This document shows, piece by piece, positions 18,031-22,283 of a stretch of 64,000 nt of DNA (the first letter of the stretch is position 1; each line of letters opens with the position of its first letter). Position numbers and translations under genes: made by a program. Location: IMG/VR virus record IMGVR_UViG_3300006143_000275. One strand, written 5' to 3'. The notes beneath the pieces are model-generated. The model did no database searches. It was not told the DNA's origin and worked only from the letters and a program-made list of their open reading frames with translations. The DNA is from a virus. Its lineage: Duplodnaviria > Heunggongvirae > Uroviricota > Caudoviricetes.

Positions 18031-18089
18031 TTACATAACGGCTGCGTCATTTGGCGATCAGCTGCACGAAGATACAAGGGAGGTTTTAT

Positions 18090-20354
18090 ATGCCTATTAT
18101 CTCTAATTTTCCAGGCGGCTCCGGAAGCGGTGGCGGAGGTCTGGCTTTGGCTGCCGCGACCGGCATCAAGACCGTAACATCGCATGAGAAGGTCTATATT
18201 CAGTGGACAGATCCGGAGGACCTTGTGGTGGCTGGTTCCACCCTGGCGTCCTGGGGAGGTACTCTGTTGGTGCGGAAAGCCGGTTCTATGCCCGTGAGCC
18301 GTCGTGACGGCGTTATCGTACTGGACAGCAAAACGCGTGACGCATATAAAACGGCGTATTTCTGCGACAGTGGGCTGACTGATGGAACAACCTACTACTA
18401 CAAACTCTTCCCGTATACCACGGCAAATTCCTACACAGACGTTGAGGATGGTGGCTTCTCCGCCACGCCCAATCCTGTTGCGCTTGGCAACGTAAGTGGT
18501 ATTAGTGCATCAGCCGCAGGCAATGGGAAAATCAGTGTGAAATGGACTGATCCGGCATCCACTGTCGTAACAGACGGTATCACTGTTGCTACATGGGCGA
18601 ATACGACCATTGTGGTGAAGACCGGATCATACGCAACTAGCCCGGATGACAGCGGAGCTGATGTTGCATTCCGTCAGGTGGTGAACACACGCAATCAGTA
18701 CGCAAGCAACCCACTGACTATCACAGGATTGACGAATGGGATGACCTACTACATCTCGTTCTTCCCTGCGTCCACAGATGGCGCTGTGAATACCAACACA
18801 GCCAACCGCACGACCGGTGTTCCGAACCGTCTTGTGATTAGTACCGTACCGTCTCAAAGCGGATCACTGACCTATAATACAAACCCACAAAATCCAAGCT
18901 GGAGCGGATATGATTCTACGAAGATGGTGCTGTCAGGAGAAACTGTCGGTACGAATGCTAAAACATATACCGCCACTTTTACACCGAAGGATGACTACGT
19001 TTGGTCTGGAGACACCGAGCCAAAGGCAAAAAATGTAGCCTGGACAATCGGCAAGGCGACCGGAACGATGACAATTTCCCCACTCTCAATCACACTGAAT
19101 AAGACCGCTACAAGTGCCACTTTTGTTATTTCTGGTAACTTTGACGGTTCTTATTCTGTTGTGTCACAGAACACGGGAATCGCAACTGTCGCACTGGCGA
19201 GTGGAAAAACCTACCGCGTCAGCAGTGTGAATAGTGCAACAGGCAATACCACTATCAAGGTTACCTGCTCTGGTGGAAGCAACTACACTATCCCAGCCGC
19301 CCAGTCGGTAAGTGTGACAGCTAAGTTTGTAACCATTTATGGCGCATCTTGGGATGGTTCCAGTACGACAAAGTGGTCTCGTACCGACGCCTCCGCGAGC
19401 TTCACCGATCCCGTTCCTGCCGTGAACAACGGCAGCGGCAGTTCTCCTTTTGATAATTTGCTGCCATGGTCCGGGATGACAAAGAGCAATCGTACTGGCG
19501 GTGTTGTTGTTGCTATTCCTAAGTTCTGGTACAAGTGGACAAAGAGCGGAAATACACTGAAGCTCCAAATCGCAGATGGAGAAACGGACGGCTTCAAGGT
19601 ATCCCCCGCTCATGCAAACAGAGGAGACGGAAAGGGTGAGCGAGATGTAGTCTATGTCGGGCGATATCATTGCGCAAGCGGTTATAAGAGCACCACTGGC
19701 GTTGCCCAACAGGTGAGTATTACCCGGTCTGCCGCACGTACAGGTATTCATAATTTGGGTGCAACCATTTGGCAGTTCGACTATGCCATGCGTGTGACCA
19801 TCCAAATGCTCTATCTGGTGGAGTTCGCAGACTGGAACTCTCAGGCGAAGATCGGATATGGCTGTTCCGCAAGTGGCTCCAAGGAGAACAACGGGAAAAC
19901 GGACGCTATGAAGTACCACACTGGCACCACAGCAGCTAACCGTACTACATACGGCTATACGCAGTACCGCAATATTGAGGGATTGTGGGATAACGTGTAC
20001 GACTGGATGGACGGATGCTACTACAACAGCAATGGTATGTACGTTATCAATACCCCGTCTGCGTTCAGTGATTCCTCTGGTGGGTCTCTAATCGGGAAGC
20101 CGTCAAACGGCTGGCCATCTGCTATTGCGGTGTCTACCGTAAGTGGCCTTGAGTGGGCGATCTATCCTACGGCTGCAAGTGGTTCTGAGAGCACATACGT
20201 CGCGGATGGCTGGGTCTATTACGCTTCCGTCCCGTGCCTGTGCTGTGGGGGTGGCTGCGACCAGGGCCAGGGCCGCGGGTTGTTCTGCGTGAGCTGCGGC
20301 GGGGCGTCGGGCACGGGCTCGGGCGTCGGCTGCCGCCTCCAAGAACTCCCCTAA
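18090..20354 (+). CDS. DGR target: receptor-binding tail protein with FN3/Ig-like domains and C-terminal C-type-lectin (Mtd/FGE-like) domain
   Basis: Start revised to ATG 18090 (SD GGGAGG). Two FN3-like repeats (WTDP...YYYKLFPY; WTDP...YYISFFP), CLec motif YRNIEGLWDNVYDWMDG, VR in the last ~50 codons. Confidence 0.9.
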   Translation: MPIISNFPGGSGSGGGGLALAAATGIKTVTSHEKVYIQWTDPEDLVVAGSTLASWGGTLLVRKAGSMPVSRRDGVIVLDSKTRDAYKTAYFCDSGLTDGTTYYYKLFPYTTANSYTDVEDGGFSATPNPVALGNVSGISASAAGNGKISVKWTDPASTVVTDGITVATWANTTIVVKTGSYATSPDDSGADVAFRQVVNTRNQYASNPLTITGLTNGMTYYISFFPASTDGAVNTNTANRTTGVPNRLVISTVPSQSGSLTYNTNPQNPSWSGYDSTKMVLSGETVGTNAKTYTATFTPKDDYVWSGDTEPKAKNVAWTIGKATGTMTISPLSITLNKTATSATFVISGNFDGSYSVVSQNTGIATVALASGKTYRVSSVNSATGNTTIKVTCSGGSNYTIPAAQSVSVTAKFVTIYGASWDGSSTTKWSRTDASASFTDPVPAVNNGSGSSPFDNLLPWSGMTKSNRTGGVVVAIPKFWYKWTKSGNTLKLQIADGETDGFKVSPAHANRGDGKGERDVVYVGRYHCASGYKSTTGVAQQVSITRSAARTGIHNLGATIWQFDYAMRVTIQMLYLVEFADWNSQAKIGYGCSASGSKENNGKTDAMKYHTGTTAANRTTYGYTQYRNIEGLWDNVYDWMDGCYYNSNGMYVINTPSAFSDSSGGSLIGKPSNGWPSAIAVSTVSGLEWAIYPTAASGSESTYVADGWVYYASVPCLCCGGGCDQGQGRGLFCVSCGGASGTGSGVGCRLQELP
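20199..20340 (+). repeat. DGR variable region (VR)
   Basis: Aligns without gaps to 20541-20682: 31 mismatches at TR adenines and 2 at non-A positions. Confidence 0.96.
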
Positions 20355-20364
20355 GAGAGGGGTT

Positions 20365-20388
20365 TGGGGAGAACCGCAGTTCTCCCCA
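20365..20388 (+). promoter_or_regulatory. DGR target-recognition hairpin/cruciform downstream of VR/IMH
   Basis: TGGGGAGAAC-CGCA-GTTCTCCCCA, a perfect 10-bp stem about 25 nt after the VR, the position known for DGR homing hairpins. Confidence 0.8.
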
Positions 20389-20414
20389 TCCAGTAGCCAA
20401 GTAAACAATGTAAA

Positions 20415-20440
20415 AGGGGACGTGCGCAAGTACGTCCCCT
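20415..20440 (+). other. Second GC-rich hairpin with GNRA loop between target and TR
   Basis: AGGGGACGTGC-GCAA-GTACGTCCCCT (11 bp with one G-T pair). Confidence 0.6.
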
Positions 20441-20540
20441 AAATCGAATCATTCCTATTTTTAGTAAAGCAAACAAGAAGCGCATTTTATGTGCGCTACG
20501 GGATTGCCTACGCAGCAGTCGCTGGTTCATTTATTGTGCC

Positions 20541-20682
20541 GTCGCGGATAACTGGAACTATAACGCTTCCAACCCGTGCCTGCACTGTGGGGGTAACTAC
20601 AACCAGAACCAGAACCACGGGTTGTTCTACGTGAACTACAACAGTGCGTCGAACACGAACTCGAACATCGGCTGCCGCATCC
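20541..20682 (+). repeat. DGR template region (TR)
   Basis: Non-coding AAC-rich copy of VR (13 AAC codons in the VR frame), ending GGCTGCCGC before the IMH* divergence. Confidence 0.96.
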
Positions 20683-20922
20683 TTGTTTTTCGCTGGGCCT
20701 CACCAGAGGTTCCGGGCGAGTGCGTGGTTAGCATTATTTTTGGTAGATCGGGCTCCTCACCCTTTCTATAAGGGCTGTGGTGCGTATTTCGCACTACACC
20801 CTTGGCGCGGGCAATCGCGTGCCCCTTGGCAAAGATTAACCGATAGGACATGGGTTAGTACCCTCTGAGAAACCGGAGCGTGGGAAAGCTCATGAGGTTA
20901 CAAGGAGGTACTGTAACAACCT
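20683..20922 (+). ncRNA. Probable structured DGR-RNA spacer (Sp) between TR and RT
   Basis: 240-nt non-coding interval with several stem-loops and the segment CCCTTGGCAAAGATT...GGTTAGTA, which resembles DGR spacer motifs. Boundaries are inferred. Confidence 0.5.
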
Positions 20923-22038
20923 ATGAAACGTACAAAAAATCTATACGAGAAACTCATTTCACACGACAACCTGATGCTTGCCCTCGTGGAGGTAAACACG
21001 AGTCACAGGTGGCTGCCGAAACACAGGCCAAACAAAACGGTCGCATGGATTGAACAGGATATGGAGGCGCGTGTAGAGGATCTGCGCCATATCATCGAGC
21101 AGATCGTATATCATAAGCGCCAGCTCTCCAAGCCGAAGCAGAAGCAGCGGTATGATAAGAGCGCCGGAAAATGGCGTATCATCAACGAACCAAAGCTGTG
21201 GCCGGATCAATATATACACCATGCGCTTGTGCAGGTTCTCCAACCAACCATGATGCGTGGAATGGACAGGCATTGCTGTGGTAGTATCCGCAATCGTGGC
21301 ATTCACTACGGAAAGAAGAAAATTGAGAAGTGGATGGACACGGATGTTAGAGGGACCAAATACTGCGAAGAACTCGACATCCATCATTTCTACGACAGCA
21401 TTGATCCAGGGTTCATTTTGATACGGTTGCGCCACCTCATCAAAGATTGGCGCGTATTGAAGGTATGCGAGGAAGTCCTACGGTACGGCGTACTGATTGG
21501 CCTATACACCTCGCAGTGGTTCGCAAATACGCTTCTACAGCCACTCGACCAGCTCATCAGAGACAGCGGATTCTGCACCCACTATCTCAGATACATGGAC
21601 AATTTCACAATCTTTGGAAGTAACAAAAGGAAACTGCACAGGCTGAGAAAGCTAATTGAAGAATGGCTTGCGGGAGTCAATCTCTCTTTGAAAGACAACT
21701 GGCAGGTGTTCCCCACAAGGAGCCGTATGCCATGCGCACTCGGCTACAGGTTCGGCAGAAGGTTCACATTGCTCAAGAAGCGCAATCTGTTCCGTCTAAA
21801 ACGGAAGCTGAACGAGTATTACCGCCGCAAAAGGCAGCACAGAAAAATATCCGCCAGAATGGCGACTGGGCTGATTTCAAGATTGGGTCAGCTCAAACAT
21901 TGCAACAATAAAAACATCTATGAAAAAATCTATCACGGCAAGGTTCAAAAGGAACTGAAACAAGTGATTCGAAATCATATGCGAGAGGAGAGATTAACGT
22001 GGAGTATGTATTTGGAGCAAATGGCTACAGCGGCGTAG
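20923..22038 (+). CDS. DGR reverse transcriptase (YMDN active-site variant)
   Basis: 371 aa, basic. Motif A LDIHHFYDSI, DGR signature IGLYTSQ, catalytic motif RYMDNF (tac atg gac aat ttc). Confidence 0.93.
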   Translation: MKRTKNLYEKLISHDNLMLALVEVNTSHRWLPKHRPNKTVAWIEQDMEARVEDLRHIIEQIVYHKRQLSKPKQKQRYDKSAGKWRIINEPKLWPDQYIHHALVQVLQPTMMRGMDRHCCGSIRNRGIHYGKKKIEKWMDTDVRGTKYCEELDIHHFYDSIDPGFILIRLRHLIKDWRVLKVCEEVLRYGVLIGLYTSQWFANTLLQPLDQLIRDSGFCTHYLRYMDNFTIFGSNKRKLHRLRKLIEEWLAGVNLSLKDNWQVFPTRSRMPCALGYRFGRRFTLLKKRNLFRLKRKLNEYYRRKRQHRKISARMATGLISRLGQLKHCNNKNIYEKIYHGKVQKELKQVIRNHMREERLTWSMYLEQMATAA

Positions 22039-22283
22039 AAACTCTCCGTACCAAAGGGAGCGAGCACACCGATTTTGAGGGGTTCGCGGAGGTGGTACAG
22101 GAATACGATGACAGCACCATCACAGACACCTTCCACGTCATCCAGAAGACAAAATTCGATGAGGATGCGGAAGGCAACTGCTATGATTGGTATGAAATCG
22201 ACCATCACAACCGCATCGTTGATAAGACGAAGCGCATGAAAGCGAATATGGCTGTGCTGGTCGCATCCATTTTGGAGGGCTAA
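21999..22283 (+). CDS. Acidic hypothetical protein overlapping the RT stop by 40 nt
   Basis: 94-aa ORF with SD GGAGAG and a downstream SD for the next gene. Does not resemble the helical, basic Avd. Confidence 0.65.
   Translation: MEYVFGANGYSGVETLRTKGSEHTDFEGFAEVVQEYDDSTITDTFHVIQKTKFDEDAEGNCYDWYEIDHHNRIVDKTKRMKANMAVLVASILEG

Follow-up and report, generated by a model that had tools for sequence, protein, structure and literature searches.

A YxDN reverse transcriptase in an avd-less phage diversity-generating retroelement and its coupled motif A residue

Can a reverse transcriptase (RT) serve a diversity-generating retroelement (DGR) with asparagine in place of the second aspartate of its YxDD motif? 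The question is raised by the RT gene at 20923..22038 of a 64,000-nucleotide stretch of phage DNA (Caudoviricetes; IMG/VR record IMGVR_UViG_3300006143_000275), hereafter the window, where this motif reads YMDN. YxDD is treated as a universal RT signature, and mutating it is the standard dead control, as exemplified by the YMDD>SMAA variant of bRT, the DGR enzyme of a Bordetella phage. The DiGReF survey of 2012 found both aspartates to be 100% conserved in 155 DGR RTs (PMC3521204), and our full-text literature search, with subscription-only literature outside its scope, returned no report of YMDN or YxDN in any RT. The first-pass annotation of this DNA had suggested an active DGR-RT class with a remodelled active site and altered fidelity. 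The motif of the whole clade, the selection acting on it, the alleles of the variable repeat and a Lys to Glu change in motif A support the natural, conserved and remodelled enzyme, whereas the altered fidelity did not survive comparison with a YMDD sister and with other YxDN lineages. We put at about 85% the probability that this is a natural, conserved and working YxDN RT, in which the asparagine is coupled to position −2 (the second residue ahead of the catalytic aspartate of motif A). The element is a genuine DGR of ordinary design, and its RT represents a functional variant of the active site that is apparently undescribed.

The YMDN motif and its conservation

The RT and its motifs lie in the window as follows.

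20923..22038, + strand: DGR reverse transcriptase, 371 amino acids (Pfam RVT_1 match, E 2.5e-13)
21370..21378, + strand: motif A residues E150-L151-D152; D152 is the catalytic Asp, and E150 co-varies with N227
21496..21516, + strand: IGLYTSQ, the DGR-type GxxxSQ motif, residues 192-198
21592..21603, + strand: motif C, Y224-M225-D226-N227, with the Asn codon aat at 21601-21603

The annotation had described a full-length open reading frame (ORF) with RYMDNF and an aat codon, together with intact motif A (LDIHHFY) and IGLYTSQ, and all of this is present. The DNA of motif C, aga-tac-atg-gac-aat-ttc, encodes R223, Y224, M225, D226, N227 and F228. The closest solved relative by sequence is bRT (8ub7, E 6.8e-17), and the HMMER alignment pairs RYMDNFTIFG with bRT RYMDDIVVLG, thus placing N227 opposite D216, the second Asp of YMDD. 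The same alignment pairs IGLYTSQWFAN with bRT IGSLTSQLFAN, the DGR GxxxSQ signature, and D152 of LDIHHFY with D138. The catalytic aspartates of bRT are D138, D215 and D216 (10.1101/2023.10.23.563531), and therefore their equivalents in the window RT are D152, D226 and N227. The AF2 model of the RT (predicted local distance difference test score, pLDDT, 82) is closest in fold to bRT in its active state (8ub7_A), with a template-modelling (TM) score of 0.81 by target. The enzyme thus carries the [I/V/L]GxxxSQ motif that marks domain 4 of DGR RTs, and at the canonical YxDD site it reads YMDN. D152 and D226 were invariant among all relatives aligned.

The asparagine is shared by the relatives of the window RT. 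Y[MVI]DN was found in 120 of the 120 closest homologues (55-100% identity; the best 120 of 1,097 matches), and all 43 genome loci with readable motifs likewise have DN. Across the 139 related loci fetched, the Asn codon is AAC in 105 cases and AAT in 34; both codons being in use, the amino acid has stayed constant while its codon drifted. The ratio of nonsynonymous to synonymous substitution rates (dN/dS) between the window RT and its closest relatives (90-92% amino acid identity) is 0.03-0.04, a rough value with synonymous sites near saturation, and the median over 34 other in-clade RT pairs is 0.14. Taken together, these comparisons of codons and substitution rates show an ancient, conserved asparagine, maintained through synonymous codon turnover, in a YxDN clade that is large and, judged by dN/dS, under purifying selection.

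Template and variable repeats and the activity of the element

The RT gene is preceded by a pair of repeats of the kind expected for a DGR.

20198..20340, + strand: variable repeat (VR), 3′ end of the target gene, forming a 143-nt ungapped pair with the template repeat
20540..20682, + strand: template repeat (TR), with 39 adenines and 13 AAC codons

The VR differs from the TR at 33 of 143 positions, 31 of which are TR adenines (27 A>G, 3 A>T and 1 A>C), in full agreement with the 31 adenine-specific changes counted in the annotation; 31 of the 39 TR adenines have been changed. The two remaining differences, at 20241 and 20303 (C>T and T>G), appear to be sporadic errors at bases other than A, or point mutations that came afterwards. 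At 20303 the TR base is present in all four other assemblies of this locus, and at 20241 in two.

Related loci were analysed with a scanner for repeat pairs in which all mismatches fall on a single base type in one of the two copies. When this wildcard base was A, a TR/VR pair was detected in 59 of the 84 viral loci, and most of the remainder are truncated upstream of the RT. When it was C, the same 84 viral loci gave 0 pairs, and the results for G and T were the same pairs read in reverse. A pair was also found in 37 of 47 loci from species-representative bacterial genomes. The comparison of homologues that the annotation had proposed thus finds YxDN marking a clade that keeps TR/VR pairs. 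Three relatives (L006, L007 and L023) have one common TR and different VRs, the latter differing from each other at TR-A sites, and adenine-specific VRs were found in other YxDN lineages (L177, L178 and L179) as well. As a separate observation, the first ~103 nt of the TR (20540-20642) are identical in relatives (L006:4619-4721) from whose RT genes that of the window differs near synonymous saturation (dS about 1.7), which suggests either strong constraint at the nucleotide level or recent TR exchange.

The most telling data came from other assemblies of the same phage. Full-length contigs from three other studies are exact over 19800-22100 apart from 18, 18 and 21 differences, all of which fall within 20208-20325, inside the VR, and the assembly of a fourth study is broken inside the VR at 20219/20222. 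Among these assemblies, 31 sites vary, and 29 of them are TR adenines; at the remaining two (20241 and 20303), it is the window that departs from the TR. The flanks and the RT are identical and the VRs are scrambled only at template adenines, thus indicating retrohoming since the phage populations diverged. On this comparison of populations, the element is evidently a currently active DGR with ongoing retrohoming, and the live VR diversity that the annotation had asked for is seen between samples. The Asn codon is covered without difference by contigs of four independent mouse or rat gut studies, and RNA-library contigs identical to the window span the TR (20468-20698) and RT residues 64-252, the YMDN codon included.

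These data bear on two simpler explanations of the motif. That sequencing or assembly produced the asparagine in error, or that it is an allele peculiar to the window phage, is almost inconceivable: we found nothing in favour of this, and contigs of four independent studies, as well as one from an RNA library, have the same codon. Together with Asn in 139 related loci, this means that the codon is no assembly error. A dead allele amid close relatives with YMDD, the outcome that the annotation had set against its own proposal, is contradicted by Y[MVI]DN in every one of the 120 closest homologues. Very improbable too is a catalytically dead YMDN RT, beside which the VR differences would be relics or would have been made in trans by the second RT of the phage or by a host DGR. 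The HIV-1 mutant D186N is reportedly inactive. The Ty1 mutant D211N, which the annotation had correctly described as still polymerising, keeps its polymerase activity with kpol down 223-fold and a preference for Mn2+, and its transposition in vivo is lost (PMC2148107); furthermore, the second RT encoded in the same phage genome has an intact YADD. However, that RT is of retron type, not of DGR type, and a dead enzyme is hard to reconcile with dN/dS values of 0.03-0.14, with an Asn codon that switches between its two synonyms and with strict linkage to a TR in >90 loci. The VR alleles vary between samples while the flanks and the RT are identical, thus pointing to very recent events, and four separate YxDN lineages all lie beside A-mutagenised VRs.

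Repeated D/N changes, the coupled residue and the substitution spectrum

To place YxDN among related enzymes, trees were built of 124 and then of 186 related RTs, with the trait columns excluded. The clade of the window RT is uniformly YxDN (27/27 rows; Shimodaira–Hasegawa-like approximate likelihood ratio test, SH-aLRT, 95), and its sister, P0126, has YMDD. YxDN occurs elsewhere in the tree as well, in the P0143/P0225/P0220 group, the P0239/P0269 group, P0183/P0211 and P0262, and in more groups where motif C is FADN or SQ is replaced by SP. Two enzymes of cultured phages, the RT of Butyrivibrio phage Arawn and that of Faecalibacterium phage FP_Epona, are 34-40% identical to the window RT and have YMDD. 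Well-supported branches force at least five D/N state changes among related avd-less phage DGR RTs, and a tree that unites all YxDN enzymes in one clade fails the approximately unbiased (AU) test (delta lnL 222, p 0.004). At the level of these alignments and trees, the results show that YxDN was gained or lost on at least five occasions among these enzymes.

Other deviations from the signature motifs were observed in this part of the tree. The Tyr of YxDD is replaced too, giving RNMDD in P0155, P0158, P0159, P0251 and P0255 and RQMDN in P0122, P0133 and P0136, and other related RTs have GxxxSP, GxxxSH or GxxxNQ instead of GxxxSQ, so both signature motifs are looser in this branch than textbooks state. 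Motif-based DGR finders can miss variants; myDGR, for example, missed a GxxxSP RT.

When the alignment columns of the YxDN set were compared with those of the YxDD set, position 150, which is position −2 of motif A, stood out. The table of motif C vs. position −2 refers to 186 RTs; its rows sum to 187, as 188 sequences were tabulated and two were dropped later.

Motif C DD, Lys at −2: 97 RTs
Motif C DD, Gln at −2: 10 RTs
Motif C DD, other residue at −2 (not Glu): 7 RTs
Motif C DD, Glu at −2: 0 RTs
Motif C DN, Glu at −2: 62 RTs
Motif C DN, Gln at −2: 6 RTs
Motif C DN, Cys, Ala, Ser or Thr at −2: 5 RTs
Motif C DN, Lys at −2: 0 RTs

In the independent contrasts available on supported branches, the two residues change together in five out of five, Glu going with Asn. 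The bRT residue at this position is Lys (K136). In a subgroup of the main clade, Gly comes after an S, C or T at −2, and Glu is often present at −4, as in EFSGD. Another position close to motif C also differs, as position 229, two after N227, has changed from Val to Thr in most YxDN enzymes.

We then asked what the selected effect of the asparagine might be. The annotation had suggested an altered fidelity, which at template adenines would mean a different misincorporation spectrum, and the spectra of VR changes at first sight agree with it.

Main YxDN clade (50 TR/VR pairs): A>G 516, A>T 239, A>C 29; A>C share 3.7%
YxDD relatives (50 TR/VR pairs): A>G 426, A>T 231, A>C 184; A>C share 21.9%

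The A>C share differs strongly between the two sets (Mann-Whitney p 2e-14). However, the YMDD sister P0126 has A>C in 0 of 44 changes, and three independent YxDN lineages have it in 14 of 51. A search of IMG/VR for the sister lineage gave members of the YxDN clade alone; the loci of the sister and of these lineages came from exact-protein look-ups, in which contigs L180-L182 were too short beside the RT to hold a full VR. A low A>C share in the YMDD sister and not in the other YxDN lineages indicates that the bias follows the clade or the target protein, not the asparagine, and Asn as the cause of an altered misincorporation spectrum is not supported by these two observations. Moreover, such spectra are filtered by selection on the target protein, and the order G > T > C is general in DGRs (PMC3521204). 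A functional YxDN motif selected for altered fidelity is therefore improbable. The scarcity of A>C in the VRs of the window, L004-L083 and L175-L176 could reflect another RT residue or selection on the common target scaffold.

A remodelled metal site is the reading that we propose. In bRT, the Mg2+ that is seen is held by D138 and D215, not by D216 (10.1101/2023.10.23.563531). In the window RT, D152 and D226 would be the ligands common to both metals during polymerisation, and position 227, the third conserved active-site carboxylate in canonical RTs, is the one lost in YxDN enzymes. Whenever this carboxylate is gone, the neighbouring Lys at −2 is gone as well, and usually a Glu would stand on the same face of the motif A strand. 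The carboxylate of position 227 may thus have been replaced or made unnecessary; with Glu at −2, three acidic groups would stay near the metal site. The remodelled site would then consist of E150, D152 and D226, or of D152 and D226 alone in the absence of the Lys. By analogy with Ty1 D211N, slower catalysis or a preference for Mn2+ may be expected, and slow catalysis could be tolerated by a DGR, which copies only about 140 nt.

Our tentative proposal for the chemistry is that the carboxylate has been relocated from motif C to the motif A strand. A comparably tentative evolutionary counterpart is a repeated, convergent move of the third carboxylate (YxDD to YxDN with Lys to Glu at −2) among the avd-less DGR RTs of Bacillota phages. 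The relocated site would be E-x-D plus a single motif C Asp, possibly with a different metal preference or speed. Somewhat less probable, in our estimate, is that the Lys/Glu coupling is mere electrostatic housekeeping: the Lys would serve only to pair with the second Asp, any non-basic residue at −2 would do next to Asn, and two carboxylates would suffice. The visible Mg2+ of bRT, which touches D138 and D215 only, agrees with this, and so do those YxDN RTs with Q, S, C, T or A at −2 (~15%) that have no obvious replacement Glu. Against housekeeping, Glu is strongly preferred (62/73) and has been gained in each independent lineage, and some enzymes without Glu at −2 have it at −4, on the same strand face.

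Several points weigh against a working YxDN enzyme with a coupled, relocated carboxylate. The proximity of positions 150 and 227 is predicted from the alignment to bRT K136/D216 and from the RT palm fold. The sign test on the contrasts gives p = 0.0625, the lowest value possible with five pairs. In the ~15% of YxDN RTs just mentioned, some of which have Glu at −4, the −2 Glu is absent, which means that a replacement carboxylate is not strictly required. In group II intron RTs, Asp occupies −2 and motif C is YADD, so an acidic residue there is compatible with an RT active site, and the rule that Glu never accompanies DD is limited to this subfamily. Finally, we infer RT activity from population genetics, and the evidence comes from assembled contigs, in which the assembly break at 20219/20222 only suggests VR heterogeneity within a sample.

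If a working YxDN enzyme in a large and abundant clade is accepted, the second Asp would be dispensable in a natural RT, and the pairs K/D vs. E/N would amount to a natural double-mutant cycle for metal-A chemistry in RTs. It would also call for caution in filtering metagenomic RTs by an intact YxDD. Cultured hosts such as Butyricicoccus pullicaecorum DSM 23266, which carries a prophage copy (L209), allow study of the enzyme.

The rest of the cassette, the phage and known systems

The RT and the repeats belong to a cassette with the following further elements.

18051..20354, + strand: target gene, 767-amino-acid tail-fibre-like protein with the VR at its C-terminus (ORF)
20326..20340, + strand: G/C-rich 3′ end of the VR, TCGGCTGCCGCCTCC, resembling an initiation of mutagenic homing (IMH) sequence, one base off the TR copy
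20366..20387, + strand: GC-rich hairpin GGGGAGAAC-CGCA-GTTCTCCCC, 9 bp with a 4-nt loop, 26 nt after the VR
20806..20909, + strand: conserved structured TR-RT spacer with candidate DGR RNA elements, ending in the RT ribosome-binding site AAGGAGG

The VR makes up the last ~50 codons of the target ORF and lies within a predicted C-terminal domain resembling C-type lectin (CLec) and FGE folds. This domain gave no sequence-level match in Pfam, NCBIfam or PDB and was identified only by fold search: the AF2 model of the last 317 amino acids of the target (pLDDT 90.8) best matched TaqVP of Thermus aquaticus (5vf4, E 1.2e-7, prob 1.0), followed by Mtd, FGE and TvpA at much weaker scores. The single base that distinguishes the VR end from its TR copy is at 20337 (C in the VR, A in the TR), where no variation is listed among the four other assemblies; by analogy with the IMH/IMH* pair of phage BPP-1, the 20326..20340 segment would have an IMH-like role. 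Perfect stems of 7-12 bp after the VR were found in 53 of 77 related loci, most often beginning 20-25 nt past the VR; their loops are mostly 4 nt long (CGCA and AGCA are examples), and the stem sequences vary from locus to locus. The hairpin at 20366..20387 is thus a candidate target-recognition stem-loop, by analogy with the BPP-1 stem-loop (PMC3240598). A second hairpin, GGGGACGT-GCGCAAGT-ACGTCCCC, followed by a T-rich stretch, lies at 20416-20439 between the target gene and the TR and may be the terminator of the tail-fibre operon.

The spacer between the TR and the RT gene was aligned for 13 loci with RTs 51-90% identical, revealing conserved blocks and 15 predicted pairs, 10 of which show compensatory changes. 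It is predicted to fold into a small hairpin of the CACC-CCTT-GGTG type and a longer stem, itself supported by compensatory changes, and it probably serves as an Avd-independent DGR RNA scaffold. No ORF was found between the VR and the RT, and PF05635 (Avd) had no match across the 138,873-bp phage. Avd is present in 74% of DGRs and is essential for bRT. Accessory genes are missing from 29% of DGRs (PMC5758913); as such an architecture is known, the missing Avd is no bar to DGR membership.

The element shares the order target-VR, TR, RT and the adenine specificity of its differences with the DGR of Bordetella phage BPP-1 (mtd-VR/avd/TR/brt; 8ub7-8ubf). In both, the VR lies at the C-terminal end of a phage protein that binds receptors and has a CLec-type fold, and a hairpin comes after a G/C-rich IMH-like end; the GxxxSQ motif and the RT fold are shared as well. 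Unlike BPP-1, it lacks avd and has YMDN, not YMDD, with Glu at −2, not Lys; its RT is 43 amino acids longer than bRT and only about 22-28% identical to it. The element also resembles the DGRs that Wu et al. 2018 (PMC5758913) describe as Architecture A, which have target, TR and RT without avd or any other accessory gene and lie beside tail genes in Bacillota phages; that paper contains no discussion of the catalytic motif. The RTs of Arawn and Epona, examples of this architecture, fall in the same region of the tree as the window RT but keep YMDD with Lys at −2. Ty1 D211N was engineered (Pandey, Patel and Gabriel 2008, PMC2148107), whereas in the window RT the asparagine occurs naturally, is conserved and goes with a change at a second site, in motif A. 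Further afield among polymerases there is only an analogy. The RNA polymerases of mononegaviruses have GDN as motif C, likewise with a natural Asn after the essential Asp, but they are RNA-dependent RNA polymerases without an evolutionary link to RTs.

The phage was found in mouse and rat gut metagenomes of at least 11 studies, and relatives occur in genomes and metagenome-assembled genomes of Oscillospiraceae and other Clostridia, including the cultured Butyricicoccus pullicaecorum DSM 23266, Lawsonibacter sp., Oscillibacter sp. 1-3 and bacterium D16-76. The best explanation of the window is a complete, active, avd-less DGR of a ~139-kb rodent-gut phage of Oscillospiraceae.

Two neighbouring genes complete the description.

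21999-22283: acidic ORF of 94 amino acids, overlapping the RT stop by 40 nt
G000:C1:109309-110448 (L230:1243-2382), + strand, outside the window: second RT, retron-type, 379 amino acids, with QGTPISP and YADD

The 94-amino-acid ORF had no match in Pfam and NCBIfam searches and is probably a phage gene and no DGR accessory; the relatives also have genes overlapping the RT end, of other families (e.g., Phage_tail_APC in L178). The second RT is the only other RT of the phage; it matches PADLOC RT_II-A (E 6e-47), lies below the NCBIfam cut-off for retron St85 and is unlikely to stand in for the DGR RT. Its gene is located just downstream of a ThiF/E1-like gene (PADLOC E1-E2 matches).

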